Positions 3,157 through 49,152 are shown, numbered from the stretch's first letter. The stretch: 64,000 bases of DNA from Acidobacteriota bacterium (GCA_025463165.1 JAOBAU010000337.1:1073-65072), one strand, 5' to 3'. Notes: a model not told the origin generated them from the sequence alone. Made by a program: numbers and translations.

Positions 3157-5511
3157 TTGCGTTTATCGACGGGTACGAAACTCGGCGCGTACGAGGTGGT
3201 CGCTCCTCTCGGCGCAGGCGGCATGGGAGAGGTGTATCGCGCACACGACTCGCGCGTCGGCCGTGACGTCGCCATCAAAGTCCTGCCGCATCGGCTTGCC
3301 GCTGATGACGAAGCGCACGCGCGATTCCTTCGCGAAGCGAAAGCGATCGCGGCGATCTCGCATCCGAACATCCTCGCGCTCTACGAGTTCGAGCGCGAAG
3401 ACGACATCACCTACGTCGTCACGGAACTGCTCGAAGGCGAGACGCTGCGCGGCCTCATCGCCCGCGGTCCGATCTCATGGCGCCGCGCCGCGGAGATCGG
3501 CGCCTGCATCGCCGACGGTCTCTCGGCCGCGCACCTCAAAGGAATCATTCATCGCGACCTGAAACCGGAGAACGTTTTCATCACCAGTGATGGACGCGTC
3601 AAGATTCTCGACTTCGGCCTCGCCAAAGCGACGCCGCTGCAAACCGGCGGCGGCGACGTCAAAGCGACGGAAAAACTTCTCAGCGACGACATGCTGAGCG
3701 ACGAGTCGGTGATCGGCACGGTCGGCTACATGGCGCCCGAACAACTGCGCGGCCAGCTGGCAACGGCCGCGAGCGACATCTTCGCGCTCGGTTGCGTGCT
3801 CTACGAAGCGGTGGCCGGACGTCCGGCGTTCATCGCCGAGAGTCCGGTCGAGACGATGACTGCCGTACTTCGCGATGAGCTTCCCGAGCTCAGCGGCTCC
3901 GGCAAGCGCGTCCCGTACGAGTTGGAACGGATCATCCGCCGCTGCGTCGAAAAGAATGCCGAGGCGCGTTTCCAGTCCGCTCGCGACCTCGGGTTCGCGC
4001 TGCGTGCACTCGGCACCACGCCGATCGAGCGCGAATGGCTGCACTGGCCGCGCGCGTCACGCCGAAAGTTGATGATCGGCGCCGGCCTCGCCATCGCGGT
4101 GGTCGTCGCTATGATCGTTGCGACGTTGCTGCGTCAGCGCACCGAAGAAGCATCGCCCGTCGCGATCCGCTCGCTCGCCGTGCTGCCGTTCGACAACGCC
4201 AGCAAAGACGCCAACAACGAATACCTCAGCGACGGCATCACCGAATCGCTCATCAACGCGCTCTCGCAAATCCCCGAGCTCTCCGTCGTCTCGCGCACGT
4301 CGGTCTTCCGCTACAAAGGCAAAGAGACGCAGCCGATGGCGATCGCGAAAGAGCTGAAGGTGCAGGCGCTGCTGACCGGCCGCATCGTCAAGCCGGGCGA
4401 AGAGCTGATCATCAGCACGGAGTTGATCGACGGTCGCAACAATCGCCACCTGTGGGGCGAGCAATATCACACGAAGATGTCGGACCTCGCGGCGGTGCAG
4501 GCGACGATCTCACGACAGATTTCCGAACAGCTCCGCCTGCAGCTGAGCGGGCAGACGAAGAAGAACGTCGGCAAGCACTACACGGAAAACAGCGAGGCGT
4601 ATCGGCTCTATCTGCAGGGCCGCTACGAGTTGAACAAGCGCACCGGCGAATCGTTCGAGCGCGCCATCAACAACTTCAGCCAGGCGATCGCGCGCGATCC
4701 GAACTACGCGCTCGCATACGCCGGACTGGCCGACTGCTACATCCTGCAATCGATCTACAACGAGAGCCCGCCGTCGAAGGCGCTGCCGCTCGCGCGCGCC
4801 GCCGCCGATCGCGCCATCGAGCTCGATGATGAGCTGGCGGAAGCGCACACGTCGCGCGCCTACTTCCTGATGAATTTCGACAGCGATCTGAGCGCCGCGT
4901 CGAACGAGTTCGAGCGCGCGCTGGAGTTGAATCCGAATTACGCAACGGCGCGCCAGTGGTACAGCCGGCTGCTCGTGACGAGCGGACGATTCGACGAAGC
5001 GATCCGCGAGATTCGCCGTGCGGAGGAGCTCGATCCGCTGAGCCTCGTCATCATCGCCGAGACCGGCGGCGTCTACGCCGACAGCGGCCGGCTCGACGAA
5101 GCGGTCGCCGAATGCCGTCGCGCGCTCGACCTCGAACCGAACTTCCCGCTCGCGCATTACGTACTCGCCGGCGCGCTCCTCAAACAGAAAAGGTTCCCCG
5201 ACGCCATCCGTGAATCCGAAACCGCGTGGCGCCTCGGTATGGATCCGCGCAGCCTCGTTCGCCTCGGAGTTTCGTACGCCGCCGCCGGACGCCGCGATGA
5301 TGCGCTGCGCACGCTGGCCGATCTCGAAGCGCTTCGCGGCAAACGCTTCGTGCCGTCATACGGAATCGCGACACTCGAGCTCGCGCTCGGCCGCAACGAC
5401 GCCGCGCTCGCCCATCTTCGCGATGCGGCGAGGGAACTACCGCCCGGGCAGTACCAGCGAATCCTCGCGGAGGATCCGATGCTGGCGCCGCTGCGCGCCC
5501 GACTGCCATAG
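3157..5511 (+). CDS. Ser/Thr protein kinase with C-terminal TM, TolB-N-like module and TPR repeats
   Basis: Gly loop GAGGMGEVYRA, catalytic HRDLKPEN, DFG and APE motifs. A TM helix is followed by VLPFDN…DGITE and TPR repeats. The start is TTG at 3157; no in-frame ATG lies before the Gly loop. Confidence 0.85.
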   Translation: MRLSTGTKLGAYEVVAPLGAGGMGEVYRAHDSRVGRDVAIKVLPHRLAADDEAHARFLREAKAIAAISHPNILALYEFEREDDITYVVTELLEGETLRGLIARGPISWRRAAEIGACIADGLSAAHLKGIIHRDLKPENVFITSDGRVKILDFGLAKATPLQTGGGDVKATEKLLSDDMLSDESVIGTVGYMAPEQLRGQLATAASDIFALGCVLYEAVAGRPAFIAESPVETMTAVLRDELPELSGSGKRVPYELERIIRRCVEKNAEARFQSARDLGFALRALGTTPIEREWLHWPRASRRKLMIGAGLAIAVVVAMIVATLLRQRTEEASPVAIRSLAVLPFDNASKDANNEYLSDGITESLINALSQIPELSVVSRTSVFRYKGKETQPMAIAKELKVQALLTGRIVKPGEELIISTELIDGRNNRHLWGEQYHTKMSDLAAVQATISRQISEQLRLQLSGQTKKNVGKHYTENSEAYRLYLQGRYELNKRTGESFERAINNFSQAIARDPNYALAYAGLADCYILQSIYNESPPSKALPLARAAADRAIELDDELAEAHTSRAYFLMNFDSDLSAASNEFERALELNPNYATARQWYSRLLVTSGRFDEAIREIRRAEELDPLSLVIIAETGGVYADSGRLDEAVAECRRALDLEPNFPLAHYVLAGALLKQKRFPDAIRESETAWRLGMDPRSLVRLGVSYAAAGRRDDALRTLADLEALRGKRFVPSYGIATLELALGRNDAALAHLRDAARELPPGQYQRILAEDPMLAPLRARLP

Positions 5512-5647: not shown

Positions 5648-8600
5648 CTATTCGCTCCAGAAGAAACGCGGCATCGTCTGCTGCGTCGGCCACTCCTTCG
5701 TCAGCGTTTCTCCTTCGTACACCTCGCCGTTTTTCACCACGTAGTGAATCTTCAGCGAGTTGTGGATGTCCTCCAGCGGATTCGCGTCGAGCACGATGAA
5801 GTCGGCGAGCTTGCCCGCTTCGATCGAGCCCAGGTCCGGCGCGAAACCGATCTTGTCGGCGGCGAGGATCGTTGACGCGCGCAGCGCTTCGTGCGGCGTC
5901 ATCGCCGTCATTCCCTTCGGCGCGCCCTCGCCCGCCATCGCCCAGAGCTCCCAGTGCGGACCGAAACCCTGCACCTGTCCGTGTGCACCGAGCGACACGT
6001 TTCCGCCCGCGCGCAGCACTTCCGCGACTCCGTGCGCGACGACCGGGAAGTGATACTCCGACGGATCGATCCACGGATGACGGCGCGCTTTCTCGTCGAT
6101 CACGAAGTGCGGCGTGAAACGGAGCAGCTTCGACATCTCATGCGGCACCATCGTCTGCCAGAGATACTGCTCGCCCCACGGACCGCCGTACGACACGATC
6201 AGCGTCGGCGTATAAAACGTTCCGGTCTTCGCGACGAACTGCACCACATCCTTCTGCAGCTCGACCGGCAGCGAATGCTCGAACGCCGTGAAGCCGTCCG
6301 CCGCCATCGTCAAATCCGAATTCAATTCGCCCGCGCCTTCAGCAGTCAGCAACATGTGCTCGAGCCGGCACGCCTCCGCGAACCACATCCGCTGCGCGCG
6401 GCCCGGCTGCTGATACACCTTGATCATTCGCGCGCCGTACGCCTTCATGCGGCGCACCTGACGGCGCGCGTCTTCGAGACTGTTCACTTCCGCGAAGACG
6501 TCTGTTTGCGCGCCGCCGTACAGCACGTCGCCCGATGAATAAACGCGCGGACCGACGAGGTGTCCGGACTCGACCATCTCCGCCTGCGCGAAAACGTCGA
6601 GCGACGGCGCGGACGGGTCGTACACCGTCGTCACACCGTAGGCGAGGTTCGCGACGTACTCCCATTTCGTGTCGGGAAAAATCTCGAAGCCGGAGTAATG
6701 AAGATGCGCGTGCGTGTCGATGAGTCCCGGGATGATCGTCTTCCCGCTCGCATCGAACTCCTTCGCCCCGGCCGGTGCGGCGAGATTCGCGCCGACCGCG
6801 GTGATGCGGTTGTCGCGCACCACGACGTCGGCGTTCTCCAGCACCTCATCGCCCTTCATCGTGACGACGCGCGCGTGACGCATCACGTACGAGCCCGACG
6901 GCGTCGCGCGCGGTTGCGTCAACGTGATGACGATCTTCTCCGACGGCGGAACCTTCAGCTTCTTCTCGTCGTCAGCGTCGTCCTTCTTCTTGTCTTTGTC
7001 GCTCTTCGACTTGTCGTTTCCTTCCTTCGCTTCTTTGACCTCGGCCTTCTTCTTCTGATCGTCGACGAACTTCAGCGCCGACGCGATCGGCAGCCGATGG
7101 AACGTGTTGCCGAGCGTCCACGTGATCGTTTTTCCGGCATCCGCCCACTCGACGTAACCGCCGGCCTCCTCGGAGAGACGCCACACCGGAACCGAGCCTT
7201 CCTTCAGCCCAACCTCCGGCGGATCCTTCATCACGATGCTCGGCAGCGCCGTCACGTAAACGTTGTCGCGCGACGTGAATGCAACCCACTGCTCGTCAGG
7301 CGACGGCACGAGATCGCCGATCGCCGGAAAGCGCAGCAGCCGCTTCTTGTCGGTGCCATCGAGGCGCACGGAAACGAGCTCGTTCTTCGGATCTTCTTTC
7401 GGCGACTTCGGCTCGATGAAATCGCGAATGTAAACGCGCGTGCCGTCGCTGCTCCACCACGTCTGCGGATGGAAGCGGAACGTGTCGGCGATCTTCACTG
7501 ACGTGATGTACGACGCGGCGCCGCCGCTCGCCGGCATCCACTTCACGTCGAACACGCTCTCCTCTTCCGGCTGGCGTCCGCGAAATTCGAGGCCGCTTCC
7601 CTGGATGAATGCGATCCGATCGCCGGTCGGCGAAAACTCGGGATTGATGTAGTGCCCGGCCACGGACGTCAACTTCTCCGGCGTCGCCGTCGCACCATCG
7701 GCCGGCATGCGCGCGCGCCAGATATGTCCGCCCTCGGCGTCGCTCCACGTCACGTACGAAAGCCACTGACCATCGGGCGAGATCGCCGGCGCGTATTCGC
7801 GACGCGGCGCTTTCGAATCATCGGCAGTCAGTCGCTGCGGCGCACCGGCAGCGGCGTTGCCCTTCAAACGTTGAATCCAGATCCGTCCGAACGCATCGAA
7901 AACGATCGCGCTCTGATCGGGCGACTGCACGGCCCAGCGCAGAATGCGCGCGCGCACCGGTCCGCTCTCGACGCGTTCCTGCCAAGCGACGCGCGGCGCG
8001 ACCGACTGCTCGACGTCGGCCGTGAATGGGATGATCTGCATCGCGCGCGTCGCGACGTCGAGGCGCGTCAGCTTTCCGTGGTTCGAGAAGAAAAGCGAGC
8101 GGCCGTCGGGCGCGAATGTGTACGCCGGCCACGCGTCCATCTGCGCGAAGCCTTCCTGCTCGTCGCGCGTCACGCCGCGCGCGAGAATGTGCTCGCCGCC
8201 GCTCTGCAGATCGCGCGAGACGAGCACCGTGTCGGCGTCGCGGCGGCTGACGAACGTCAACGTCTTTCCGTCCGGCGAAAGTTGCGGACGGACCGCGCCG
8301 CCGATGCCCGACGTCAGCTGCGTCGTCTCCGCCGTCTGGCGGTCGTAACGCTGAATCGCCCAAAGTCCGTGGGAAATGTCGGGCGTGTAGTTGAAGCGCC
8401 GCGAGCGCGCGGCGAAGTAGATGTAGCGGCCGTCCTTCGAGAAGATCGCGCCGGCGCCGTTGTTGAAATCATCCGAGTTGGTGAGCTTCACGCCCGAACC
8501 GCCGCGCACGTGGAAGATCCAGAGCTCGACCGGCGGAATGCCGCCGCGCTTCGCATCTTCTTTTCGCGCGACGATGTAGTTGCCGTCAGGCGACCAGCTC

Positions 8601-9019
8601 GGCGAGCGAACGTACGAGCCTTTCTCTTCGGTCAGCGCGCGCGCGTTTTTCCCGTCGGCGTCGATGAGCCAGATGTTGTCGATGCCGCCGCGATCGCTGA
8701 CGAACGCGATCGTTTTCCCATCGGGCGAATAGCGCGGACCCCAGTCGTACGCGGGACCTTTCGCAATCGCGGTCGCTTTGCCGCCGGCGACAGGGATCGT
8801 GTAGAGATCGCCGAGGAGATCGAAGAGGAGCGTGGAGCCATCAGGAGAAATGTCGACGGACGCCCACGTCGCTTCATCAACCGTGAAGGCGATCCTGCGC
8901 GCGTCGGGACGCGGATCGTTGATCTTTTCCGCGGGATCGAACGGCTTCTTCGCCGGCTCCTCTTTGGCGTGGACCAGTGCCGCAACGAGCAGCAGAGCGA
9001 TAACCGTCAGCTTCTTCAC
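5648..9019 (-). CDS. TolB-like WD40 beta-propeller fused to metal-dependent amidohydrolase, secreted, 1123 aa
   Basis: GTG start with AGGAGG 5 nt upstream and signal peptide MKKLTVIALLLVAALVHA. Repeated SPDG(K/S)T(I/L)AF propeller motifs. A K/D/E-rich linker precedes a C-terminal amidohydrolase with IIPGLIDTHAHLHYSG. Confidence 0.85.
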   Translation of the reverse strand: MKKLTVIALLLVAALVHAKEEPAKKPFDPAEKINDPRPDARRIAFTVDEATWASVDISPDGSTLLFDLLGDLYTIPVAGGKATAIAKGPAYDWGPRYSPDGKTIAFVSDRGGIDNIWLIDADGKNARALTEEKGSYVRSPSWSPDGNYIVARKEDAKRGGIPPVELWIFHVRGGSGVKLTNSDDFNNGAGAIFSKDGRYIYFAARSRRFNYTPDISHGLWAIQRYDRQTAETTQLTSGIGGAVRPQLSPDGKTLTFVSRRDADTVLVSRDLQSGGEHILARGVTRDEQEGFAQMDAWPAYTFAPDGRSLFFSNHGKLTRLDVATRAMQIIPFTADVEQSVAPRVAWQERVESGPVRARILRWAVQSPDQSAIVFDAFGRIWIQRLKGNAAAGAPQRLTADDSKAPRREYAPAISPDGQWLSYVTWSDAEGGHIWRARMPADGATATPEKLTSVAGHYINPEFSPTGDRIAFIQGSGLEFRGRQPEEESVFDVKWMPASGGAASYITSVKIADTFRFHPQTWWSSDGTRVYIRDFIEPKSPKEDPKNELVSVRLDGTDKKRLLRFPAIGDLVPSPDEQWVAFTSRDNVYVTALPSIVMKDPPEVGLKEGSVPVWRLSEEAGGYVEWADAGKTITWTLGNTFHRLPIASALKFVDDQKKKAEVKEAKEGNDKSKSDKDKKKDDADDEKKLKVPPSEKIVITLTQPRATPSGSYVMRHARVVTMKGDEVLENADVVVRDNRITAVGANLAAPAGAKEFDASGKTIIPGLIDTHAHLHYSGFEIFPDTKWEYVANLAYGVTTVYDPSAPSLDVFAQAEMVESGHLVGPRVYSSGDVLYGGAQTDVFAEVNSLEDARRQVRRMKAYGARMIKVYQQPGRAQRMWFAEACRLEHMLLTAEGAGELNSDLTMAADGFTAFEHSLPVELQKDVVQFVAKTGTFYTPTLIVSYGGPWGEQYLWQTMVPHEMSKLLRFTPHFVIDEKARRHPWIDPSEYHFPVVAHGVAEVLRAGGNVSLGAHGQVQGFGPHWELWAMAGEGAPKGMTAMTPHEALRASTILAADKIGFAPDLGSIEAGKLADFIVLDANPLEDIHNSLKIHYVVKNGEVYEGETLTKEWPTQQTMPRFFWSE

Positions 9020-13511: not shown

Positions 13512-13907
13512 ATGCGCGGGCCGTGCCGGTGGTGCAAAGGGGATGTGAGCGGACGCAGGCGGACGTTCTGTTCGGACGCGTGCGTTCACGAATGGCGGCT
13601 GCGCTCGAGCGGCTCGTATCTGCGCGAGTGCATCTTCGAGCGCGATCGCGGCATCTGCGCCATCTGCCGCATCGACACGGTTGCGCTGCGCCGCCGCATC
13701 CTGCGACTTCCCTTCGGACGGCGCATCATCGAGATGAAAGCGCTGCGCATCGTGAAGGGACGCAAGAGCTGGTGGGAAGCGGATCACATCGTGCCGGTCG
13801 TCGAAGGCGGCGATTCGAACCTCGACAACATCCGCACGCTGTGCGTGACCTGTCATCGCAACGTCACTGCTGAGTTGCGCGAGCGGCGGCTTCACTCCAC
13901 GCGATAG
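13512..13907 (+). CDS. HNH endonuclease (small, stand-alone)
   Basis: MRGPCRWCKG…CAICR…ADHIVPVVEGGDSNLDNIRTLCVTCH matches the HNH Cys/His and DH…N motifs. The start is uncertain (13479 or 13512). The 3' end overlaps the pbpC 3' end on the other strand. Confidence 0.7.
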   Translation: MRGPCRWCKGDVSGRRRTFCSDACVHEWRLRSSGSYLRECIFERDRGICAICRIDTVALRRRILRLPFGRRIIEMKALRIVKGRKSWWEADHIVPVVEGGDSNLDNIRTLCVTCHRNVTAELRERRLHSTR

Positions 13908-16186
13908 CGAATGCTGTCGCTGCGTCCGCCGTCGTCGACGACGACCAGCTGATGCGTGCCGCGTTTCGGCCGCAGAAACATCCGCTGCGATGGCACACCG
14001 GACGCGACGAGCACGCCGTCATCGAACCAGAAGAGTTGCGCGGCGTCGTTGGTCTGCGCGGTGAGCAGAATCTCCTGGAACTCGAGCGGCGCATCGCGGC
14101 GCAGGCGATACGGCGTCGCGCCATCGGGTGAAACGATTTTCGGCGGCGCATCCGTGGCGACGTCGCTGCATCGCTTCGCGAGCGGCGGCAGCGCTTCGAA
14201 CGGCTGCTCCTGCGCGCGCCACCACGCCACGAGCTCCGGCGGCTGCATTGTGACGATAATCGTCCGATGCGCGGTTTGCGCAACGCAATCGCCGGCCAGG
14301 CGTTCGCCGCTCTTCGCGTCGACGAGCACGGCGCGATGCAGCTCGCACGCGTGAAGGTGCGTCCGATCGGGGATGTATTCGACGCGCGTTCGCTCGCGAC
14401 AGAACTCGGTCGGCAGCTGATGGCTGATCGCACAAACCTCGATCGTCGAGATGCCGAGGCCGTCGGGACGGCGGAGATGGGCATCGCCTTCGATGGCGCG
14501 GAAGAGATCGAAGAGCAGCGGCGCGGCGAACTCGGAGCCCGACATTCCTTTCTGTCCGTGACCGTCGAAGTTGCCGGCCCAGACGCCGATCGCGTATCGC
14601 TCGGAAAATCCGACGCTCCACGCATCGCGATGTCCATACGACGTGCCGGTCTTCCACGCCACCGCCGGCATCTCCCGCGCCAGCTGCCACGCACGCGGCA
14701 TGTCCGGTCTCTTCACCTCGGCGAGGATGTCGGTCACGAGCGCGGTCGCCTCGCGCGAAAAGATTCGTGTGGGTTGTGTTTGTGCGCGGCGCAGCACGGT
14801 CGCCGGCCGATGCAGTCCGCCCTCAGCGAGCGTCGCGTAAAAATTCGTCAGGTCGACGAGCCGCACTTCACCCGCGCCGAGAATCAACGGCAATCCGTAA
14901 CGCGACGGATCGCGATCGATCGACGTCAGCCCACCGCGGCGCAGCAGCTTCACGAATTCTTCGACGCGCTCGCTCTGCAGCACGCGCACGGCCGGCGCAT
15001 TCAGCGATTGCACGAGCGCGTCGCGAACGGACACGCGTCCGCGATAGGTGCCGTCGTAGTTCTCGGGAACGTAGCCAGCGTAGTCGGTCGGGATATCGAG
15101 CAGATACGAATCGGGGATCAGCAGTCCGTCATCGAACGCCTTCGCGTAGAGGAACGGCTTGAGCGTCGAGCCGGGCGAGCGTCGCGCGGCGGCGCCATTG
15201 ACCTGTCCCTGACGCGCCGCCTCGAAGAATGACGCCGAGCCGACCATCGCCACGACTTCTCGCGTCCGGTTGTCGATAACGACGACCGCCGTCTGTCCGA
15301 CGCCGAACGCGCGCAGCGACGCGATGCGCGACGCCACCTGCTGTTCGGCGAGCCGCTGCACGCGGCGATCGAGCGTCGTGTAAACGCGCGCGCGGTCCCT
15401 CGCCTGCTGCACGGCGTAGTCGCAAAAGTGCGGCGCGATGAACGGCGGCTTGCGGCGTTCGATCGGCAGCGGCTGGCGCATCGCCTGTTCGATTTGTGCG
15501 GAGGAGAACGCGCCGCGATCGCGCAGCTGGCGAAGGACGCGGTCGCGTGCGCGCGTCGCGGTGACGTGATCGCGCAACGGATCGTAGCGATTGGGCGAGC
15601 GCGGAAGCGTCGTCAGAAACGCGATCTCGCCGAGCGAAAGTTGCGCCGGCGGCTTGCCGAAGTAGAGATACGCGGCCGCGCCGATCCCTTCGATGTTTGC
15701 GCCGTACGGCGCCATGTTCACGTACGCCTCGAGCAGCTCGCGGCGCGTGTGATGATGCACGAGCTGCAGCGCGCGAAATGCTTCGAGCAATTTCCCGCCG
15801 ACGGTGCGCGACTTCGGCTGCGACATCCGCGCGAGCTGCATCGGAATCGTCGACGCGCCGCTGACGATGCGACCCGCGCGAAGGTTGGAGATCGCCGCGC
15901 GGCCGATGGCGATCGGATTCACGCCGGGGTGCCGCCAGAACCACTGATCCTCCGACACGACCAGCGCGCGGATGAGCTCCGGCGGCAGCTCCTCGAGCGA
16001 CACCGGAATCCGCATCTTGTGATCGGCCGGCAGGATCATCCGAATCGGCTCACCGTCACGATCGAAGACGACCGTGGCCGGCGGCCGATGCAGCCGCGCT
16101 TCGGGAAATGGCGCGAAGAAATCGACGATCGCGAAGAGAAGAAAAGGAAGGACGATCGCCGCAACGACGATGACGAGCCTCTTCAT
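13892..16186 (-). CDS. pbpC: Penicillin-binding protein 1C (bifunctional transglycosylase/transpeptidase)
   Basis: ATG MKRLVIVVAAIVLPF with signal anchor. GT51 motifs EDQWFWRHPGVNP and GASTIPMQLAR, transpeptidase STLKPF. Conserved pairing with A2M. Confidence 0.85.
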   Translation of the reverse strand: MKRLVIVVAAIVLPFLLFAIVDFFAPFPEARLHRPPATVVFDRDGEPIRMILPADHKMRIPVSLEELPPELIRALVVSEDQWFWRHPGVNPIAIGRAAISNLRAGRIVSGASTIPMQLARMSQPKSRTVGGKLLEAFRALQLVHHHTRRELLEAYVNMAPYGANIEGIGAAAYLYFGKPPAQLSLGEIAFLTTLPRSPNRYDPLRDHVTATRARDRVLRQLRDRGAFSSAQIEQAMRQPLPIERRKPPFIAPHFCDYAVQQARDRARVYTTLDRRVQRLAEQQVASRIASLRAFGVGQTAVVVIDNRTREVVAMVGSASFFEAARQGQVNGAAARRSPGSTLKPFLYAKAFDDGLLIPDSYLLDIPTDYAGYVPENYDGTYRGRVSVRDALVQSLNAPAVRVLQSERVEEFVKLLRRGGLTSIDRDPSRYGLPLILGAGEVRLVDLTNFYATLAEGGLHRPATVLRRAQTQPTRIFSREATALVTDILAEVKRPDMPRAWQLAREMPAVAWKTGTSYGHRDAWSVGFSERYAIGVWAGNFDGHGQKGMSGSEFAAPLLFDLFRAIEGDAHLRRPDGLGISTIEVCAISHQLPTEFCRERTRVEYIPDRTHLHACELHRAVLVDAKSGERLAGDCVAQTAHRTIIVTMQPPELVAWWRAQEQPFEALPPLAKRCSDVATDAPPKIVSPDGATPYRLRRDAPLEFQEILLTAQTNDAAQLFWFDDGVLVASGVPSQRMFLRPKRGTHQLVVVDDGGRSDSIRYRVE

Positions 16187-19100
16187 CGCTTCCTCACAAT
16201 GAACACGCCTCTCTCCCCCACCGCATGATTGGCGCGCGCATACATCGCCTCGGCGAACAGCGGCTGCTGCTGAAACACGCCCGGTGTCACGGCGCGCAGC
16301 AGCGTATAGAACGTCAGCGCACCGGAGGCGGGAAGCTCGACGAAGTACAGCACCTGATCGTCGCGGATGTCGACGTTCGTGCACTCGCTGCCGTCGGTCA
16401 TCCACGGTAGTTTCTCCGTCGTCTTCAGCCGGGGATTCTCAACTTCCAGTCCGGCGGGGATGAGGTTCTGCACGACGACGTTGTCGAGCCGGCCGTTGAG
16501 ACTCTCGATCTTCATCGTGCAGATGAGCAGCTCGCCCTGCGTCACGCCGGTCGGATCGATCGGACTTCCATCACGCGTGTGCAGCTCGCGCGTGACGCGA
16601 ATGCCGGACGACTCCGGTTTGAATGCGGCCGCGGTCTTCACGCCGCGCGCGTCGAGCGAATAGAACGCGGCGCCGGACGTGTACGCGCCGTTCATCTTCA
16701 CGCGGATCGTTCCTTCACCTTGGATGTTGCGGAAGACAGCGGTGCGATTCTCGAACGTGCCGATGAGACGGTTGTCGAGGAAGACGGCACCGGAGTACGG
16801 CGGCATCGCTTTCTGATGTTTGATGAACTGGCCGAGCGCGAGCAGCGCGAACGCCGATTCCTGCGTCGTCCAGTACGGTTGCGCGGCATCGCGAGCGAGG
16901 CGCTCGACGAGCGGCGCGATGCGCGCGTCGTTCGGCGATGCGTCGAGGATCGCGAGCAGCAACATCGCCCGATTGCGGATCGCGGAGTCGAGGTTGTTGC
17001 CGGTGGTGCGCGCGACGTCATCGACGTCATGCAGTCCGCTGAGCAGCGTTTGAATGGCGACCGGATTGCCGACCGTCGCATACGCGGCGGCGAGCAGCGC
17101 GCGTCCTTCCGGATGAAGGTCGGACGCGTGATGCGCGCGGAGGAAATCCATGGTGCCGAGGTCCGGCTTGCCGGCGCGAGCGAGGATGTAGAGCTCGTAG
17201 ACGACGCGCTCCAGATCGAGCTCGTCGTAGTCGGATCGCGCCTTCGCATCGTTCGCGATGAACGCGAGCGCACGATCGTAGATCGGCGAGTCGACCGGAT
17301 GTCCGGCCCGGCGCGCCTCGACGAGGAAATGCGTCGCGTACGCGCTTCCCCACGGATAAACGTTCTGGCCGTACGGCCACATTGAAAAGCCGCCGGAGTA
17401 CGTCTGCATCGTGGCGAGTCGGCGAATTCCTTCGTGCACCATCGCGGTCGATTCGTTGTTGCGGAACGCGTCGGGATCGAGCTCCTTCGCGAGGTCGCTG
17501 AAGTAGATGAGCGGGAACACGCTCGACGTCGTTTGCTCGACGCAGCCGTACGGATAGTGCAGCAGATACTTCAGCTTTCCGCGGAAGCGGACGATCGGCA
17601 GCGGACTGACGACGAGTGTCCGTTCGACCGAGCCGGGAACGAACGGCTTCACGAGCTCGGGACGGAACGTCGCCGCGTTTTCCGTGAACGGTCCGGCCAC
17701 TTCGACAGTTTCGAGCGGCAGATCCCAGCGAACCGGCACGTCGAATTTCGCGGACGACTTTTCCCCGTTGCCTGACGCGGTTGCGGTGAAGACGATCTCT
17801 CCCGGCTGATGCGGCGCAGTCAGCGTGAAGTAGGCGGTCTTCTCAGTGGCGTTCGGAAGGTCAAGTTGTTGACGAACGGCTCCCGTCAGTTCGACGCTGA
17901 AGCGTCCGGCGCGGCCGGTGTCGTTGCGAACGGTGATCGGAATCGACACCTGATCGCCGACGCTGAGGAAGCGCGGCACGGTCGGCAGCAGCGTGATCGG
18001 ATCGTGGACGCGCACCATCGCTTCGCTGCTGCCGAAGCGGCGGCCGCGATGGACGACAGCCATCACGCGAATGCCTCCCTGAAAATCGGGGATCGCGAAC
18101 TCGGTGTGCACGCGGCCGTTCGCGTCGGCCTTCAGCGGTCCGGACCAGTACGAGACCGGCTTCGCGCGGCGGATCGAATCGGCGCGCACGTATTGCGCCT
18201 GCCCTTCTCCGCTCTCGCTGCCGCCGGCTGCCGCTTTCCCTTTCGGTTTCACCTCGGGGAGGAGCTGCGCGAAGATGTCGTATGTCGACGTGCCGAGGGC
18301 GAGCTTGCGATAGAACCATGAGAACGGATCGGCGGTCTTCTGCGCGATCAGTTGCAGGATTCCTTCGTCGACCGCGGCGATGGTGACGATGGCGCCCGGC
18401 TCGGCGGTGACGTCGATCGGCAGCGTGCGATTGGCGCGCAGTTCGGCCGGTGCTTTGATCGCGGGCGCGACGCGGTTCGCCGTGCGATCGACGTTGATCG
18501 GGATCGCGCCGAATGCGCGTCCCGCTTCGCCCGGCTCGAGATCGCCGGCGGTGCGAACGAGCGTCGCGGTGACGTAGCCGTTCGGACGGAGATCGGCGGT
18601 GATCGGGATGGAGATCTTCGCGCTGTTGCCGGCCAGCGTTTCGATGGAGATGTAGTGGATGCGATCGCGTTCGAGCGTGATCAGCAGCTTGCCGGCGAAC
18701 GGCGCCTTCACCTGCACGATCGCCGTGTCGCCCGGCGCGTACTCGTCCTTATCGAGCTCGAGCTGCAGGCGGCCGGGATTCTTCATCGCCCACGGCGAGT
18801 AGCCGCGGCCGCTCGCGTAGAACTCGACTTCTGCCGATGCGCCGGTCGCCGCGTCGGTGATGACGACGCGATACGAGCCGTATTCGCGCGGCGTGAAGAC
18901 GAACGAGCCGTGCGTCAGTCCGGCGGCGAGCGATTTCACCGCGACCTGCCGCGTCTCGCGCGTCGTCACGTAATCGTACGAACCGCTGCTCGAGCGGCGG
19001 AGCAGACAGTGCCAGCGATCTTCCATCAGCTCGGCGCGCAGCGTTCCGGCCGGCGACGGTTTTTCATCGTGGCCGACCGCGACCCACTCGAACGTTACGG

Positions 19101-21576
19101 CGCGGCCGGGATCGGGGTATTTGTCAGGATCACCGCCGCGGCGGATGCCGAGGTAGTAGGGAACGGGGTGCACCGGAACGTGTGCGATCGCGGAGACGCC
19201 GCGGCCGCCCTGTTCCTGCACGCGCGCAACGACGAGCGCTTCGAGCGACGATGGAACCTGGAGTCCGGCGGGAATGGCGAAGCGGAACTGTTTCGCGCCG
19301 GCGGCATCGAGCGCGCCGCTCTCGGTGGCCAGCTCGCGCGATTCGAATTTGCGATCGTTGTTCGCGAACGCGTAGCTCTCGAATCCGGTCGGCGTGAACT
19401 GCACCGGCATCAATCGCACGCGTGTTTCAACAGTGAGGTTCGCGGCCGGTGGACCAAAGAGATAGTTGCTGCCGACGTCGTAAATGAGGTCGTCGCCCGG
19501 CGACGCGGCTTTCGTCTTCGGCCGGATCTCGACCTTGATGCGATCGGGGACGAACTCCTCGACCTGGAAGCGATACGTGCCGATGACTTCCGTGCCGGCG
19601 ATGACGTCGAGCCGATGGTGGCCGGTGCGCGCGTACGGCGGAAGTTTGATCGTGAACGGCGCGACGCCGCCGTCGCCGATGGTGAGGCGCGTGCTTTCGC
19701 GCTCGTCGCTGCCGTCGAAATGTTTGGCGACGAGCGGCATTTGCGGTGGCGGTTGCAGCATCCGGTCGCGCACGACGGCGACGCCTTCGACGACTTCGCC
19801 GGGACGATAGATATCGCGCTCGGCGTAGACGAACGCGAAGTAGCCGGCGGCGGGCAGCTGATCGCCGGCGACGTCGAACGGCGAGATGTCGATCTGGCTC
19901 TTGTCGAAGTGGAGGAAGCTGTAGTCGCCACCTTTCTGCAGCGTGATGATCAGCGGCTTCTTTTTGCCGAGGATTTTGGTGAGCCCTTTGAGGTGGAAGA
20001 CGCCGCGCTCGTCGGTGCGGCCGGTTGCGAGCGTCTGGTTTTGCGTGCTGATCAGCGAGACCGCGGCGCCGTCGATCGGCGCGAGATCTTTGAACGACGA
20101 CGCCCATACGATCAGCTCGTCCTCCCCTTCTTTGGCGACGATGCCGATGTCTGTGATGAGAATCCAGCGAACGGACTGGTGATGCGCGTCGGCGACGGTG
20201 ACGCGATAGAGACCGGGCTCCGCCTTCTTCACGTACGGCTCGAGCGAGATCGTCGTTACGATCTTTTTGTTATGCGCTTTGCGCAAAGGCACGCGGCGGT
20301 AGGCGAGCCGATCGCCGAGCGACTCGGAGACGCCGGAGATCGAGACGTCGCTGTTCGGATCGACGTCGGCGTCCTCGTCGTATTCGTAGTTGTAGGAGCG
20401 GTAGTCGTACTGGTGCGTGAGCGCGAAGGCGATGTTGTTTCGATAGACGCGATCGACCGCGACCCAGGCTTCATCGACGTTCACGCTTTCGATGGCGACG
20501 TTTTTCCAGCCGCTGGCGGAGAGGAACATCCCTTCGCTCTGAAAGTCGAGCGAGTGCGCGAGATCGGGAAAGGTGACGTCGGCCGCGTAGCCGGCTTCGA
20601 GCGTGGCGTCGTCGGTGGCCGGCAGGCCTTTCGCGACGACGACGTGATACGCGCTGCCGGGCGTGAACGCGCCGATGAGCTGCAGGTCGTTCCCTTCGAC
20701 GCCGAGCTGGTACTTCACGGCCGGCGTGACGGTGACGAATTTCGAGGCGACGTCGGCAGCAACGGCTGACGACAGCTCGATGCGCAACGTCGACTCGTTC
20801 GTTCCCGATTTCCCTTCGACGTTGCGGACGACGAGCTTGTCGGACGAGCCGAGCTTCACCTCCTGCACGTAATCGTTTTGCAGGACGGAGCCGCGAATGC
20901 AGCCGGCCAGACCTTTCGAGATGACGAGCTTCAGCGTCCGCTCGCTGTTGCGCTTCTGCAGCGGGCGGCTGCGAAACGAAATGTCGGCGTTGCATCCCGG
21001 CGGCGAGGCGATCTCGAGCGGCTGATGCTCGTTGCCGTCGATCAGCTCGGCGCGCGTCACGAGCAGCTCGGGATTCACGTCGTAGTTGAGATAGATATCG
21101 CCCTGCAGCACGACGATGTGCCGCGCGGCGTCGATGACCTCTTCGTTGGTGACGATGGAACGGACGATCAGATCGTCGATGCGTACGCGCAGCTCGCCGT
21201 CGCCGCGAAAGCGCTGGCCGGCGGCGAGGAAGCGCGACTTGTTGAGCGTGATCGTGAATTGCGCGCCGGGGGCGAAACCGCCAGCCGGCTCGAAGCGGAG
21301 GACGTTGTTGGTGCGCCAGCGCCAGACGCCCTGCACGTGCGGATCGATGGTCGCCGGCGGCGGGATGACGACGCGGCCGGCCTGCGCGACGGAGACCGGG
21401 CGATCGAAGGTGATGTCGACCCAGGCGCGCTGGTTCCGATCGAGCTGCACGTCGAAGACGCCGATCGAGGAGTCATCGGCGGGAGCCGCGTTGTGCTGCA
21501 CCAACTGCGCGATGGCGGTCACGCCCGCGATGAACGCGAGCACGACGCCGAGAGCAATGAGATTTCGCCGTTCCAT
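16183..21576 (-). CDS. Bacterial alpha-2-macroglobulin family protein (thioester-containing), 1797 aa
   Basis: The size fits, and the thioester motif YPYGCVEQTTS (CxEQ) is present. N-terminal signal anchor. Stop TGA overlaps pbpC ATG (ATGA). Confidence 0.9.
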   Translation of the reverse strand: MERRNLIALGVVLAFIAGVTAIAQLVQHNAAPADDSSIGVFDVQLDRNQRAWVDITFDRPVSVAQAGRVVIPPPATIDPHVQGVWRWRTNNVLRFEPAGGFAPGAQFTITLNKSRFLAAGQRFRGDGELRVRIDDLIVRSIVTNEEVIDAARHIVVLQGDIYLNYDVNPELLVTRAELIDGNEHQPLEIASPPGCNADISFRSRPLQKRNSERTLKLVISKGLAGCIRGSVLQNDYVQEVKLGSSDKLVVRNVEGKSGTNESTLRIELSSAVAADVASKFVTVTPAVKYQLGVEGNDLQLIGAFTPGSAYHVVVAKGLPATDDATLEAGYAADVTFPDLAHSLDFQSEGMFLSASGWKNVAIESVNVDEAWVAVDRVYRNNIAFALTHQYDYRSYNYEYDEDADVDPNSDVSISGVSESLGDRLAYRRVPLRKAHNKKIVTTISLEPYVKKAEPGLYRVTVADAHHQSVRWILITDIGIVAKEGEDELIVWASSFKDLAPIDGAAVSLISTQNQTLATGRTDERGVFHLKGLTKILGKKKPLIITLQKGGDYSFLHFDKSQIDISPFDVAGDQLPAAGYFAFVYAERDIYRPGEVVEGVAVVRDRMLQPPPQMPLVAKHFDGSDERESTRLTIGDGGVAPFTIKLPPYARTGHHRLDVIAGTEVIGTYRFQVEEFVPDRIKVEIRPKTKAASPGDDLIYDVGSNYLFGPPAANLTVETRVRLMPVQFTPTGFESYAFANNDRKFESRELATESGALDAAGAKQFRFAIPAGLQVPSSLEALVVARVQEQGGRGVSAIAHVPVHPVPYYLGIRRGGDPDKYPDPGRAVTFEWVAVGHDEKPSPAGTLRAELMEDRWHCLLRRSSSGSYDYVTTRETRQVAVKSLAAGLTHGSFVFTPREYGSYRVVITDAATGASAEVEFYASGRGYSPWAMKNPGRLQLELDKDEYAPGDTAIVQVKAPFAGKLLITLERDRIHYISIETLAGNSAKISIPITADLRPNGYVTATLVRTAGDLEPGEAGRAFGAIPINVDRTANRVAPAIKAPAELRANRTLPIDVTAEPGAIVTIAAVDEGILQLIAQKTADPFSWFYRKLALGTSTYDIFAQLLPEVKPKGKAAAGGSESGEGQAQYVRADSIRRAKPVSYWSGPLKADANGRVHTEFAIPDFQGGIRVMAVVHRGRRFGSSEAMVRVHDPITLLPTVPRFLSVGDQVSIPITVRNDTGRAGRFSVELTGAVRQQLDLPNATEKTAYFTLTAPHQPGEIVFTATASGNGEKSSAKFDVPVRWDLPLETVEVAGPFTENAATFRPELVKPFVPGSVERTLVVSPLPIVRFRGKLKYLLHYPYGCVEQTTSSVFPLIYFSDLAKELDPDAFRNNESTAMVHEGIRRLATMQTYSGGFSMWPYGQNVYPWGSAYATHFLVEARRAGHPVDSPIYDRALAFIANDAKARSDYDELDLERVVYELYILARAGKPDLGTMDFLRAHHASDLHPEGRALLAAAYATVGNPVAIQTLLSGLHDVDDVARTTGNNLDSAIRNRAMLLLAILDASPNDARIAPLVERLARDAAQPYWTTQESAFALLALGQFIKHQKAMPPYSGAVFLDNRLIGTFENRTAVFRNIQGEGTIRVKMNGAYTSGAAFYSLDARGVKTAAAFKPESSGIRVTRELHTRDGSPIDPTGVTQGELLICTMKIESLNGRLDNVVVQNLIPAGLEVENPRLKTTEKLPWMTDGSECTNVDIRDDQVLYFVELPASGALTFYTLLRAVTPGVFQQQPLFAEAMYARANHAVGERGVFIVRKR

Positions 21577-21671
21577 GATGGCTTACATAAGAAAGCCCGA
21601 ATGGGGAACGGGAACGGCACAACAAAGGAAAGTGGATGCGCGCCTTGTGGCGGAATTGTGGCGGGCGCCAC

Positions 21672-21746
21672 GTCATCCTGAGCGCGGCGAAGGATCTCAG
21701 GATGGAGAGCGGCGCATTTGAGATCCTTCGCTGCGCTCAGGATGAC
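21672..21746. repeat. 27-bp inverted-repeat element (SAAKDL-type) with 21-nt loop
   Basis: Arms gtcatcctgagcgcggcgaaggatctc and gagatccttcgctgcgctcaggatgac have 26/27 complementarity. The element lies 5 nt after the mrp stop and about 95 nt upstream of the A2M start. Confidence 0.6.
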
Positions 21747-21750
21747 GGGA

Positions 21751-24780: not shown

Positions 24781-24877
24781 CATGCTGAGCGAAGCGAAGC
24801 ATCTCCGGTCCAGCAGCTGCGCAGTACGCCAACGTCACAGCTGCTGCACCATAGATCCTTCGCTTCGCTCAGGATAA
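24781..24877. repeat. Composite palindromic element, second copy of SAAKDL-type arms with nested inner hairpin
   Basis: Arms tgctgagcgaagcgaagcatc and gatccttcgcttcgctcagga. Inner palindrome cagcagctg…cagctgctg. Located between the lipoprotein stop and the SPOR gene start. Confidence 0.55.
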
Positions 24878-45881: not shown

Positions 45882-46817
45882 ATGGGTGAATCGGCGCGCG
45901 ACGAAGGATTTCTCGAACGGCTGATCGGCGACGGCCGGGCGCTGATCAAGCTGCTCGCACTGGCGCTGATCGGCTCCGGCGTCTTCGTGCTGTTCCAGGC
46001 GGCGACCGGCCACTTTCTGCCGCACGACACCGCCTGGCTCGGCATGACCGCGCAGCAGCTCTGCACGTCGCACGGCTGCCGCATCGTCCACTTCATGATG
46101 CACGACCGCGTTTCGTTCGGCGGCGTGCTGATCGCCATCGGTGTGATGTATCTCTGGCTCGCCGAGTTTCCGCTGCGTCGCGGGGAAACGTGGGCGTGGT
46201 GGGCACTGGCCGCAAGCGCCGCCGCCGGTTTCCTCAGCTTCCTCACCTACCTCGGATACGGCTATCTCGACACGTGGCACGGCGCGGCGACGCTCGCACT
46301 GTTGCCGCTCTTCGCATCAGCGCTTTACCGAACGCGCGCGCTGCGTCTCAATCGCGTGCTGATCGCACCGTTCGACTTCCGCACGCGCGCCGGCGTCGGA
46401 CGAATGCTGCTCATCGCGACGACGACCGGCATCATCGCCGCCGGCCTGACGATCATGACCGTCGGTATGACGGCCGTCTTCGTGCCGCAGGATCTCGAAT
46501 TCATGCGCATCACACGCGCTGAACTGCAGCAGCACAGCGCTCGATTGATTCCGCTCATCGCGCACGACCGCGCCGGCTTCGGCGGCGCGCTCGTTTCGTG
46601 CGGCGTGGCGATGCTCTTCGCCGTGCTGTACGGAACGCCGTCGCGCAATCTCCGGCAGGCGCTGGCGATCGCCGGAACGGCCGGCTTCGCGACCGCCGTC
46701 GGCATTCATCCACTGATCGGCTACACGAACGCGACGCATCTCGGACCGGCGGTGTTCGGCTGCGTGGTCTTCGCGATCGGACTCGCGCTTGTGCAGCTGG
46801 GCCGCGTCCGCGCTTAG
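45882..46817 (+). CDS. Hypothetical polytopic membrane protein (about 8 TM, internal duplication)
   Basis: Duplicated halves contain HFMMHDRVSFGGVLIAIGVMYLW and LIAHDRAGFGGALVSCGVAMLF. Loop CTSHGC. Start uncertain. Confidence 0.55.
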   Translation: MGESARDEGFLERLIGDGRALIKLLALALIGSGVFVLFQAATGHFLPHDTAWLGMTAQQLCTSHGCRIVHFMMHDRVSFGGVLIAIGVMYLWLAEFPLRRGETWAWWALAASAAAGFLSFLTYLGYGYLDTWHGAATLALLPLFASALYRTRALRLNRVLIAPFDFRTRAGVGRMLLIATTTGIIAAGLTIMTVGMTAVFVPQDLEFMRITRAELQQHSARLIPLIAHDRAGFGGALVSCGVAMLFAVLYGTPSRNLRQALAIAGTAGFATAVGIHPLIGYTNATHLGPAVFGCVVFAIGLALVQLGRVRA

Positions 46818-49090
46818 AGCCCGATGCGCCGCTCGATCGAGCGCATCCGCAGATCGCCGCGAATCGAATCGAAGTGCGGATCGACGCCGATCCGAATCAG
46901 CCACGGCGATCGTTCTTCGACGGAGCGCAGCAGGTAATCGAACGCGGCATCGGCATCGCCGGCGCCGGCCCACGCCAGCGCGAGATCGTAGACGGAGACG
47001 AACTCGTGCTTCGATCGTTCTTCCAGCGCGCGAATGATCGCGATGGCGTCGTCGCGGCGTCCCGCGCGTCCGCGCACTGACGCGAGCACCGCAAGGACGT
47101 ACGAGCTCGGATAGATCGCGGCCACGCGTTCGAGCTGCACGAGCGCGAGCTCGAAATCGCCGCGCGCGGCGAGCACCTGGCCGATCGCGAACTGCACCCA
47201 GATGAAGTCCGGATCGATCTGCCGCGCCTTCTCCAGCATCGTCAGCGCCGCGTCGAAATCGCGGTCGTAGTAGAGCGGCCACGCCGATTCGGTATTGATC
47301 GCCAGTGAGAGCGGATCGAGCTCGCGCGCCAGCGCCATCTGCGCCGCCGCCTCGCGAAAGCGCCGCCGAACGGTGAGCAGCCACGCGTACCAGTGATGCG
47401 CGGTGGCGTAGTTCGGATTCAACTCCAGAGCGCGCTGAAACGACGACTCCGCGCCCGTCCAGTCCCAGTCGAACCAGCACTTGGTGAACGCCAGCGATGC
47501 ATGCGCCTCGGCGAGCGAGTCGTCGATCTCCAGCGCGCGCGTTGCGGCCAGCTTCGCTTTCGGCAGCGCGTCACGCGGCGGAATCGCGCTGTACGTCGTC
47601 AGCAGGTTGTAGCAGTCGGCAAGTCCGACGTACGCGCGCGCATAAAGCGGATCGTGCTCGATGGCCTGATCGAACAGCTCGATGGCGCGACGGAAACCGT
47701 CCGCCGTCCTCTTGTTCCACTGATAGCGGCCGCGCAGAAACAGTTGATACGCCTCCGGGTTTTCCGTGTGGCGCTTGTGCAGCTTCTTCCGATCGGCGCC
47801 GGTCAGCTTCACGCGCAGCTTCTCCGCGATCCGTTCGGCGATCTCTTCCTGAACGGCGAAGATGTCGGAGAAACGCAGATTAAAACGCTCGCCCCAGATC
47901 TGCGCGTTGTCGGAAACCTCGACCAGTTCCGCCTGGATGCTCAGCGATTCGCGGACCTGATGAATGGCGCCGGTCAGCACCGTCTTCACGCCGAGCTCGC
48001 GGCCGACCGTCTGCGGATCGGCGTCGATTCCTTTGTAGCGAAACACGGTGCCGCGCGCGATCACGCGCAGCTTCGGCAAACGCGCCAGCTTGTTGATGAC
48101 GCTCTCCGTGATTCCATCGATCAGGTAGTCGGCGCCAGGATCGCGCGAGCCGTTCGCGAACGGAATGACGGCGATCGATTTCCCGCGCGGTTTCGTCTTC
48201 GTCGGCGCAACCGAACCGGAGTCGCTGCGGATGGCGCGCAACGCGAACGCGAGATCGCGCGCCGACTGAAATCGCTCCGCCGGATTCTTCTCGAGGCAGC
48301 GCGAGATGACGCGCTGCAGATCGTACGGAATGTGGCGTCCGGAATGTTCGAGCGCCGGCGGATCGTCGTTGAGAATCGCCGCCATCGTTTCGATGAGACT
48401 GGAGCGGCCGAAGGCGCGGCGTCCCGTCACCATCTCGTACAGCACGCAGCCGAGCGAGAAGATGTCGGTCGCGGAATCGAGGGCGCGGCCGGAAAGCTGT
48501 TCGGGCGACATATAGCCGATCGTCCCGACGACGTTCTCCGGCGGATGCTCGAGCGCATTCGTGGCGGTGTCGTCGTTGTTGCCGCCCGGCGACGCGGCGG
48601 CGCGAATGACGGCGAGGCCGAAGTCGAGGATCTTCACCTGTCCGTCGGCGAGCACGAAGATGTTCTCCGGCTTCAGATCGCGATGGATGATCTGCTTCGC
48701 ATGCGCGGCCGCCAGTCCGTCACAAACCGCGGCGCCGATCTCGGCGGTCTTCGCCCACGGTATCGCCGCGGACGCGATTCGTTCCCGCAGTGGCTCGCCG
48801 ATCAGGAGCTCGGTGACGATGAACGCCCGCTCGCCGTCGTGATCGAGCTCGAAGATCGAGAGAATGTTCGGATGCGACAGCGCCGCAATGGCCTTCGCCT
48901 CGGTGGTAAAGCGCTCGAACGTTTCCTCGCTGTTCACCACTTCGGGAATCAGGACCTTGATCGCCACGAAGCGACCGAGGCGGGTGTCGACGGCGCGGTA
49001 GACCTCACCCATTCCGCCGGAACCGATGAGATCGACGATCTCGTACGGTCCGAGGCGGCTGTTCGCGGCAAGCGGCATGTGCGGCGACAT
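46814..49090 (-). CDS. Ser/Thr protein kinase with TM, TolB-N-like module and TPR repeats (paralog of 3157-5511)
   Basis: GSGGMGEVYRA, HRDLKPEN, DFG, then TM, then AVIPFANGS…DGITES and TPR. ATG at 49090 or 49078. Confidence 0.85.
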   Translation of the reverse strand: MSPHMPLAANSRLGPYEIVDLIGSGGMGEVYRAVDTRLGRFVAIKVLIPEVVNSEETFERFTTEAKAIAALSHPNILSIFELDHDGERAFIVTELLIGEPLRERIASAAIPWAKTAEIGAAVCDGLAAAHAKQIIHRDLKPENIFVLADGQVKILDFGLAVIRAAASPGGNNDDTATNALEHPPENVVGTIGYMSPEQLSGRALDSATDIFSLGCVLYEMVTGRRAFGRSSLIETMAAILNDDPPALEHSGRHIPYDLQRVISRCLEKNPAERFQSARDLAFALRAIRSDSGSVAPTKTKPRGKSIAVIPFANGSRDPGADYLIDGITESVINKLARLPKLRVIARGTVFRYKGIDADPQTVGRELGVKTVLTGAIHQVRESLSIQAELVEVSDNAQIWGERFNLRFSDIFAVQEEIAERIAEKLRVKLTGADRKKLHKRHTENPEAYQLFLRGRYQWNKRTADGFRRAIELFDQAIEHDPLYARAYVGLADCYNLLTTYSAIPPRDALPKAKLAATRALEIDDSLAEAHASLAFTKCWFDWDWTGAESSFQRALELNPNYATAHHWYAWLLTVRRRFREAAAQMALARELDPLSLAINTESAWPLYYDRDFDAALTMLEKARQIDPDFIWVQFAIGQVLAARGDFELALVQLERVAAIYPSSYVLAVLASVRGRAGRRDDAIAIIRALEERSKHEFVSVYDLALAWAGAGDADAAFDYLLRSVEERSPWLIRIGVDPHFDSIRGDLRMRSIERRIGL

Positions 49091-49152
49091 TGTACGGGCG
49101 AGCACGGGACGAAATCCCGCCGCGCTTTCGTGCGTTGGAGGTGTTCGCCGCG

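Follow-up and report, generated by a model that had tools for sequence, protein, structure and literature searches.

A Type I alpha-2-macroglobulin gene overlapping pbpC in an Acidobacteriota genome: a probable counterpart of the enterobacterial protease trap

The closest described relatives of the protein considered here are the alpha-2-macroglobulins (A2Ms) of E. coli (ECAM, the product of yfhM) and Salmonella (Sa-A2M). Biochemically, the family is characterized by cleavage of a bait region and, in the monomeric ECAM, by thioester-dependent covalent trapping of the protease (PMC4498604, PMC3328433, PMC5764988, PMC7864068), a covalent step that is required for inhibition by this monomeric form (PMC7864068, PMC4498604). 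In ECAM, residues of the YPYGC, RDDR and EXMY motifs provide a hydrophobic pocket and a lock between the thioester domain (TED) and the C-terminal macroglobulin (MG) domain (CTMG) that together protect the thioester, and they re-bind the cleaved bait; the RDDR motif forms hydrogen bonds with the TED and also with the bait once this has been cut (PMC4498604). The Type II A2M of P. aeruginosa, MagD, is periplasmic and inner-membrane-associated and traps protease non-covalently, without a thioester (PMC5764988). The idea of "periplasmic defence and repair" is a hypothesis that PMC4498604, PMC3328433 and PMC5764988 credit to Budd et al. 2004. [quoted passage not shown]

The A2M gene (16183..21576, minus strand) starts with ATG and encodes 1797 aa, as established from its open reading frame (ORF), its translation and its Pfam and Protein Data Bank (PDB) matches; pbpC (13892..16186, minus strand), recognized by NCBIfam TIGR02073, Pfam and sequence motifs, encodes 764 aa. 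Because codon-position GC content in the minus-strand A2M frame is 0.83 at third positions (GC3) versus 0.45 at second positions (GC2), this frame is preferred over the long antisense ORFs. An earlier note on this DNA, made from the sequence alone, had described an intact gene for a 1797-aa A2M homologue bearing YPYGCVEQ, had placed the gene pair at 13892-21576 and had spoken of an "Acidobacteria-like genome". Translation of the ORF returns both the length and the motif, the coordinates coincide exactly with the outer limits of the two genes, and the A2M gene is indeed intact, being full-length against homologues and profiles with all catalytic and structural motifs kept. The source, too, was correctly recognized: in a homology search the protein is 100% identical to JWO97_3498 [Acidobacteria bacterium], a "hypothetical protein" from a metagenome-assembled genome (MAG) at NCBI, and its nearest relatives come from MAGs of Thermoanaerobaculia and other Acidobacteriota, environmental in origin (soil and sediment), with the isolate-name prefixes SMAG and MFD. 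No second copy of A2M or PBP1C was found within the window.

A hidden Markov model search, which the earlier note had singled out as decisive if it came back empty, recovered both the MG series and the thioester domain. Pfam finds nine A2M-family domains in canonical order: bMG2 (aa 345-458, just below its cut-off), bMG3 (aa 474-573), MG2 (aa 581-672), bMG5 (aa 678-804), bMG6 (aa 810-921), the bait-region domain A2M_BRD (aa 937-1076; 90 bits against a cut-off of 22.7), A2M (aa 1143-1230), TED_complement (aa 1332-1446; a weak match, 26.5 bits against a cut-off of 22) and bMG10 (aa 1658-1780; 85.8 bits). The MG series that would form the body of the trap (MG0-like, bMG2/NIE-like, bMG3, MG2, bMG5 and bMG6; aa 250-921) occupies 18814..20829 on the minus strand, as delimited by Pfam and an AlphaFold2 (AF2) model. 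In the PDB, the best match is the Salmonella A2M (4u48, E = 1.1e-90), with E. coli ECAM (5a42, 4ziq and 4rtd) at E values of about 1e-89, all over query aa 308-1794. For aa 925-1797, an AF2 model based on 13 aligned sequences (mean predicted local distance difference test score, pLDDT, of 76.8) shows 13 helices at aa 1332-1589 and a beta domain at the C-terminus. A fold search with this model again places ECAM (5a42, E = 1.8e-57) and Sa-A2M (4u48, E = 1.7e-55) at the top, with far weaker matches to A2M-family proteins of frog and human, to CD109, to TEP1 and to complement C3/C5. From the MG0 equivalent through to the CTMG, the locus protein has its domains in the same order as ECAM and Sa-A2M (5a42, 4rtd, 4ziq, 4u48); in common with them it also has a disordered loop in the bait-region domain, YPYGC-x-EQ in a helical TED, the E-x-M-Y and RDD motifs of the CTMG, an N-terminal export signal and a pbpC gene immediately downstream, although a structure-based alignment of the C-terminal half gives only ~24% identity. 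Of the features that can be read from the sequence, all but the lipobox support assignment of the protein to the Type I (thioester-containing) bacterial A2Ms.

The thioester domain (aa 1332-1589; 16810..17583, minus strand) is delimited by Pfam, by the ECAM alignment, by the AF2 model and by fold matches; it is helical and aligns along its whole length with the ECAM TED. Its motif YPYGCVEQ (aa 1341-1348; 17533..17556, minus strand) is read directly from the sequence and lies in the segment HYPYGCVEQTTS of the translation, which bears Cys1345 and Gln1348. The CTMG (bMG10, aa 1658-1780; 16237..16605, minus strand; Pfam and motifs), the presumed lid over the thioester, carries RDDQ at aa 1738-1741 (window 16360-16371) and EAMY at aa 1776-1779. 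A residue alignment of the C-terminal 738 aa pairs YPYGCVEQT, IRDDQV and EAMY of the locus protein with YPYGCLEQT, FRDDRF and ESMY of ECAM, such that the pair of motifs is CVEQ and RDDQ here and CLEQ and RDDR in ECAM and Sa-A2M. In a 26-sequence alignment that reaches down to 24% identity, Y1341, P1342, G1344, C1345, E1347, Q1348, R1738, M1778 and Y1779 are invariant and D1739, D1740 and E1776 nearly so. CxEQ is found in 115 of 120 homologues among the matches listed, four of the five without it being truncated (1082-1301 aa), and in a set of 83 relatives from the clade, whose identity to the query is 43-74% across most of its length, every full-length member keeps YPYGC-x-EQ. By analogy with ECAM, we infer that an internal thioester would form between Cys1345 and Gln1348.

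The earlier note had proposed to look for a bait region by alignment to ECAM. The sole long stretch with pLDDT below 50 in the aa 925-1797 model, fragment residues 152-215, corresponds to aa 1076-1139 (18160..18351, minus strand) and, with the Pfam match and the ECAM alignment, is predicted to be where the bait-region domain presents a flexible, exposed bait loop; it aligns with the bait segment of ECAM. In ECAM, Arg923-Leu942 is disordered after elastase cleavage, with Phe947-Asn963, which comes next, docking on the C-terminal MG domain (PMC4498604); with numbering derived from the thioester offset, these two segments align with about aa 1093-1135 of the locus protein. Within the clade only ~17 residues vary, in the bait core KPKGKAAAGGSESGEGQA at about aa 1110-1127, and the flanks are conserved, with LLPEV before the core and Q(Y/F)VR..(S/G)IRR.KPV after it, the conserved segment directly following the core being QYVRADSIRRAKPV. 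The conservation of this distal bait segment may be explained by docking on the C-terminal MG domain after cleavage, as in ECAM (PMC4498604). Contrary to expectation, the bait is not the least conserved region of the protein within the clade; conservation is lowest at the N-terminus and in two loops, an acidic one at aa 389-410 and another near aa 185.

The second gene is an intact PBP1C orthologue with all catalytic motifs kept, and the earlier note's identification of it was right. Its product scores 708.7 bits against the equivalog model TIGR02073 (PBP_1c; cut-off 494.2) over aa 33-763 of 764, and Pfam finds Transgly (aa 46-221, 170 bits), Transpeptidase (aa 300-518, 63.7 bits) and BiPBP_C (aa 674-760, 60.3 bits). 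The GT51 domain (aa 46-221) contains the motifs EDQWFWRHPG (79) and GASTI (110), the transpeptidase domain STLK (340), SLN (394) and KTG (512), and a hydrophobic, transmembrane (TM) type helix spans aa 4-22 (hydrophobic maximum 2.93 at aa 4). The layout is that of E. coli PBP1C and of class A penicillin-binding proteins, with an N-terminal TM helix, GT51 and transpeptidase domains and the PBP1C-specific C-terminal BiPBP_C domain. Because the locus PbpC scores 484 bits against the enterobacterial-specific model PRK11240, far under its cut-off of 1121, it must be a distant orthologue. A GTG-started, 837-aa form of pbpC (from 16405) was rejected, its extension being Arg-rich, overlapping the A2M frame and giving no homologue or profile match.

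At the junction, read from the sequence at 16183..16195 on the minus strand (...AGG AAG CGA TGA AG...), the A2M stop codon TGA (16183-16185) overlaps the pbpC ATG (16184-16186), as the earlier note had observed, to give ATGA at 16183-16186; three nucleotides ahead of the ATG lies the Shine-Dalgarno-like site GAGGAA (16190-16195). The ATGA overlap and this internal ribosome-binding-like site together suggest that translation of the two genes is probably coupled. On the other side of the A2M gene, a 174-nt gap (21577..21750, minus strand), presumed from the sequence to hold the operon promoter, separates it from a gene for an Mrp/ApbC-type Fe-S ATPase, and downstream of pbpC a small gene for an HNH endonuclease (Pfam HNH, E = 4.9e-10; about 13512-13907, plus strand), convergent in orientation, overlaps the last 16 nt of pbpC. 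This upstream gap and the convergent downstream gene argue for an operon of just two genes.

That A2M and pbpC are linked in bacteria was asserted in the earlier note as established; the literature agrees (PMC4498604, PMC5764988, PMC3328433), and so does the recurrence of the pair in a survey of related loci. When a single genome from each species was scanned by pattern, 80 loci with A2M relatives emerged, each of which was searched with the window PbpC. For 15 of them the flanks do not reach far enough for a verdict, leaving 65 informative loci. In 46 of these, spread over many phyla, no more than 4 kb separates pbpC from the A2M gene. It is immediately downstream on the same strand in 33 loci, about 10 of which, from several phyla, could have a 4-nt start/stop overlap. 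In 10 further loci, all from Bacteroidota (Chitinophagaceae and relatives; L018, L021, L024, L025, L028, L029, L031, L033, L046 and L064), pbpC is upstream and divergent at a distance of 360-900 nt, such that in these loci the linkage is kept and the operon structure is not. The remaining three loci were scored as having pbpC upstream on the same strand, although at least one of them (L067) is probably a downstream case that was mis-scored. The neighbourhood as a whole (GGDEF, DUF4388, TPR, SPOR, Mrp, A2M, pbpC with a 1-nt overlap, and the convergent HNH gene) is found again in L081, a relative of 74% identity; the HNH gene there (13691-14047) overlaps pbpC as well, so that its convergent, overlapping placement is conserved at that distance. 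In a 62%-identical relative only A2M and pbpC are kept, 316 nt apart and among different neighbours. Since the pair alone is kept in both relatives, it is the A2M-pbpC pair that is the conserved unit.

The same data bear on the possibility that the genes are decaying or mis-assembled and that their apparent coupling is an accident of GC-rich sequence. The source is a MAG, and artefacts of this kind do occur in the A2M family: an apparent A2M-PbpC fusion of 2637 aa (P0069), which we discarded as a gene-calling or assembly artefact, ends in ~800 Arg/Ala/Pro/Gly-rich residues that are an out-of-frame read-through into pbpC. Here, however, both ORFs are full-length against homologues and profiles with every motif intact, GC3 in the A2M frame has the value given above, and the same type of junction recurs in other phyla. 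Intact, conserved full-length frames effectively refute this explanation, which we regard as scarcely credible.

The N-terminus of the A2M protein begins MERRN and continues into a ~21-residue hydrophobic stretch, with a 19-residue Kyte-Doolittle maximum of 2.33 at aa 7-25; the Kyte-Doolittle profile and the AF2 model delimit a helix at aa 3-29 (21490..21570, minus strand), and no other such segment occurs elsewhere in the protein. ECAM and Sa-A2M are deposited as lipoproteins (PDB molecule names), whereas the locus protein has this helix and no lipobox Cys. To judge by the sequence, the helix is probably both the export signal and an uncleaved inner-membrane anchor, its length favouring retention. 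A lipobox pattern scan of the 83 clade relatives gave two matches, of which only that in P0073 is plausibly placed; the other, "VVAC" in P0015, falls inside the hydrophobic helix. In a genome survey, homologues from Bacteroidota and Xanthomonas had lipoboxes, and those from Acidobacteriota, Desulfovibrionales, Poribacteria and Planctomycetota had TM-type helices; among A2M homologues, the type of anchoring tracks taxonomy.

An AF2 model of aa 1-480, built from 15 sequences (mean pLDDT 82), shows the helix, a short disordered linker and four beta-sandwich domains (aa 37-132, 138-242, 250-335 and 342-474). The best fold match of this model is the MG0-NIE-MG1 part of ECAM (4zjg), with just 246 columns of 480 aligned, and the PDB alignment begins only at query aa 308, equivalent to about residue 96-113 of the ECAM chain. 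The first two, membrane-proximal domains (aa 37-132 and 138-242; 20851..21468, minus strand), identified from the AF2 model, the point at which the alignment starts and a weak Pfam match to Big_5 at aa 53-114, are thus additional to ECAM and Sa-A2M and, at ~200 aa, account for the difference between 1797 aa and the ~1640 aa of the ECAM and Sa-A2M chains. The long form recurs elsewhere: homologues from Bacteroidota, Poribacteria, Planctomycetota and other groups match the query from about residue 40-80, whereas in the genome survey alpha- and gammaproteobacterial homologues match it from about residue 280-310 only. The domain equivalent to NIE/bMG2 also contains an acidic, Tyr-rich disordered loop, THQYDYRSYNYEYDEDADVDPNSDV (aa 389-410; window 20347-20412; pLDDT 35-39), which after the N-terminus is the least conserved stretch of the A2M protein among clade relatives.

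With two additional immunoglobulin (Ig)-like domains at the N-terminus and a fold common to TEP1, CD109 and complement C3/C5, one might imagine that the thioester tags surfaces or macromolecules, as in insect TEPs and complement C3, or that the Ig-like stalk has an adhesive or structural role in the envelope. We consider this very improbable: the bacterial protease-trapping A2Ms are by far the best matches, conservation extends to the bait-region domain and to those CTMG motifs that are specific to traps, and a single N-terminal helix, with no outer-membrane or secretion signal, points to the periplasm; nor did Pfam find anaphylatoxin or C345C domains in the A2M protein. Among eukaryotic proteins, alpha-macroglobulins, TEPs and complement C3/C4/C5 have the MG-BRD-CUB-TED-CTMG fold and thioester chemistry in common with the locus protein, yet are only ~13-16% identical to it in sequence; they are secreted, often oligomeric, have a larger bait region and have no bacterial N-terminal MG0/NIE-type domains (PMC12939704).

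A Type II assignment (MagD, E. coli YfaS) is ruled out by the presence of CVEQ and by the absence of mag-like genes among the neighbours of A2M and pbpC. Type II proteins share the superfamily and the overall MG/BRD architecture, but they have no CxEQ and belong to a six-gene, magABCDEF-type operon, whereas the locus A2M has CVEQ and pbpC as its sole operon partner. The label "uncharacterized protein YfaS (alpha-2-macroglobulin family)" is given by JGI to many homologues that contain a thioester and are linked to pbpC; this is a generic COG name and not a subtype assignment, and it is misleading, since E. coli YfaS is a thioester-less Type II protein. For the same reason, the earlier note's equation of the thioester type with "the protease-trapping variety" holds in part: Type I is the covalent trap, but the thioester-less MagD also traps protease (PMC5764988).

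If the locus A2M works as ECAM does, both proteins would be exported by their N-terminal hydrophobic helices and would most likely be kept in the inner membrane, so that the A2M, anchored by its helix, would rise into the periplasm on a stalk made up of beta-sandwich domains. A foreign endopeptidase reaching the periplasm would cut the disordered bait loop (about aa 1076-1139); the freed loop segment would push the CTMG off the TED; and the Cys1345-Gln1348 thioester, now uncovered, would react with a surface lysine of the protease to tether it covalently. PBP1C, made from the same transcript, would supply glycosyltransferase and transpeptidase activities, proposed to repair the peptidoglycan after the breach. 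Protease trapping by the locus A2M is a conclusion that we draw from these analogies, and its cooperation with PBP1C in defence and repair is a hypothesis.

Several observations weigh against this account. The lipobox cysteine of the enterobacterial proteins is absent, there being no Cys before residue 195; the lipobox is a property of enterobacterial members and not of the whole family. An AxA-like APA at aa 31-33, which comes after the helix, might be cleaved by signal peptidase I. Gln takes the place of the last Arg of the RDDR motif, in this protein and likewise in the four aligned relatives nearest to it (P0002, P0004, P0010 and P0022), with Arg kept at this position by more distant clade members and by ECAM. 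No pbpC is present within 4 kb in 19 of the 65 informative loci (with at least 2.3 kb on both sides), including those of some closer homologues (L004-L006), and the partnership is therefore not obligatory. A scan for sigma-70 consensus sequences found no promoter match, so that an operon promoter can only be inferred and is not located. Finally, the source is a MAG of a free-living-type acidobacterium and not, as for ECAM and Sa-A2M, an enteric bacterium, and the "host protease" part of the classical hypothesis is not obviously applicable; because the source and its relatives are environmental, the likelier targets are proteases of other microbes (competitors or predators) or the cell's own.

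This last point opens onto a different account, in which the protein is a genuine thioester trap with a housekeeping task, either controlling the cell's own periplasmic or secreted proteases or serving as a partner or regulator in peptidoglycan synthesis by PBP1C, the pbpC linkage then reflecting a physical complex rather than "trap and repair". An organism that is not host-associated, with nearest relatives in soil and sediment, would fit it, as would a linkage that is tight and often overlapping, the strong conservation of QYVRADSIRRAKPV and LLPEV in the clade, which leaves only the ~17 core residues of the bait free to vary, and the suggestion in the literature that the C-terminal region of ECAM interacts with PBP1c (PMC3328433). 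Against this, the conserved post-bait segment is explained by its known docking on the C-terminal MG domain after cleavage (PMC4498604), nearby pbpC is missing from the 19 loci just mentioned, and the operon contains no gene for a cognate protease. On balance we think a housekeeping task of this kind unlikely, and a protease trap paired with PBP1C remains the account that we favour.

The intergenic region upstream of the A2M gene also contains, directly after the Mrp/ApbC gene, an inverted repeat (21671-21747) with 29-nt arms (CGTCATCCTGAGCGCGGCGAAGGATCTCA and its complement, 97% complementary) around a 19-nt loop; the region folds at -78 kcal/mol (z = -8.8). Four matches to the arms are found in the window against 0.01 expected, and a related second copy of the arm pair lies ~3 kb off in an intergenic gap at 24784-24873. 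The repeat looks like an intergenic palindromic element of the REP type; because no U-tract follows the hairpin, it is not a canonical terminator. Terminator-like sites as such number 6, versus 6.3 expected from shuffles.

Further downstream of the operon, beyond the HNH gene, lie genes for an AMP-binding ligase and MsrA, and no tRNA genes were found within the window. Elsewhere in the window, at 49561-52472 on the plus strand, a Clp-type ATPase with two AAA domains (Clp_N, AAA, AAA_2, ClpB_D2-small) is directly followed, with overlapping ends, by a leucyl/phenylalanyl-tRNA-protein transferase, an arrangement that resembles an N-degron pathway pair and is unrelated to A2M. Two paralogous-looking Ser/Thr protein kinases with C-terminal TPR arrays (3157-5511, plus strand; 46814-49219, minus strand) and a 1123-aa PD40 beta-propeller/amidohydrolase protein (5648-9019, minus strand) are typical of Acidobacteriota genomes.

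The locus is thus an uncharacterized new member of the well-described A2M-PBP1C system, whose identical protein is already public; in the literature searched, we found no paper combining "Acidobacteria", "macroglobulin" and "penicillin-binding". Taken by itself it matters little beyond annotation and opens no new question: entries now called "hypothetical" (NCBI) and "YfaS" (JGI) could become "Type I alpha-2-macroglobulin, PBP1C-linked". The long-form, helix-anchored variant that it represents is widespread and is not discussed in the structural literature examined, and the enteric lipoprotein form is just one of at least two variants in anchoring and length. As a tentative idea, which we would sooner doubt than believe, the ~1800-aa TM-anchored A2Ms with two extra Ig-like domains may be a functionally distinct Type I class that dominates outside the Proteobacteria. 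If so, the longer stalk would set the trap further from the inner membrane and nearer the peptidoglycan or outer membrane, the trap would act in soil bacteria against proteases of competitors or predators, and this would argue against bacterial A2Ms being colonization factors aimed at host proteases. For the family as a whole, the survey shows A2M and pbpC staying paired in many phyla, mostly in environmental bacteria and often with a stop codon that overlaps the next start, and it mildly supports a role in general envelope protection over a host-specific one.

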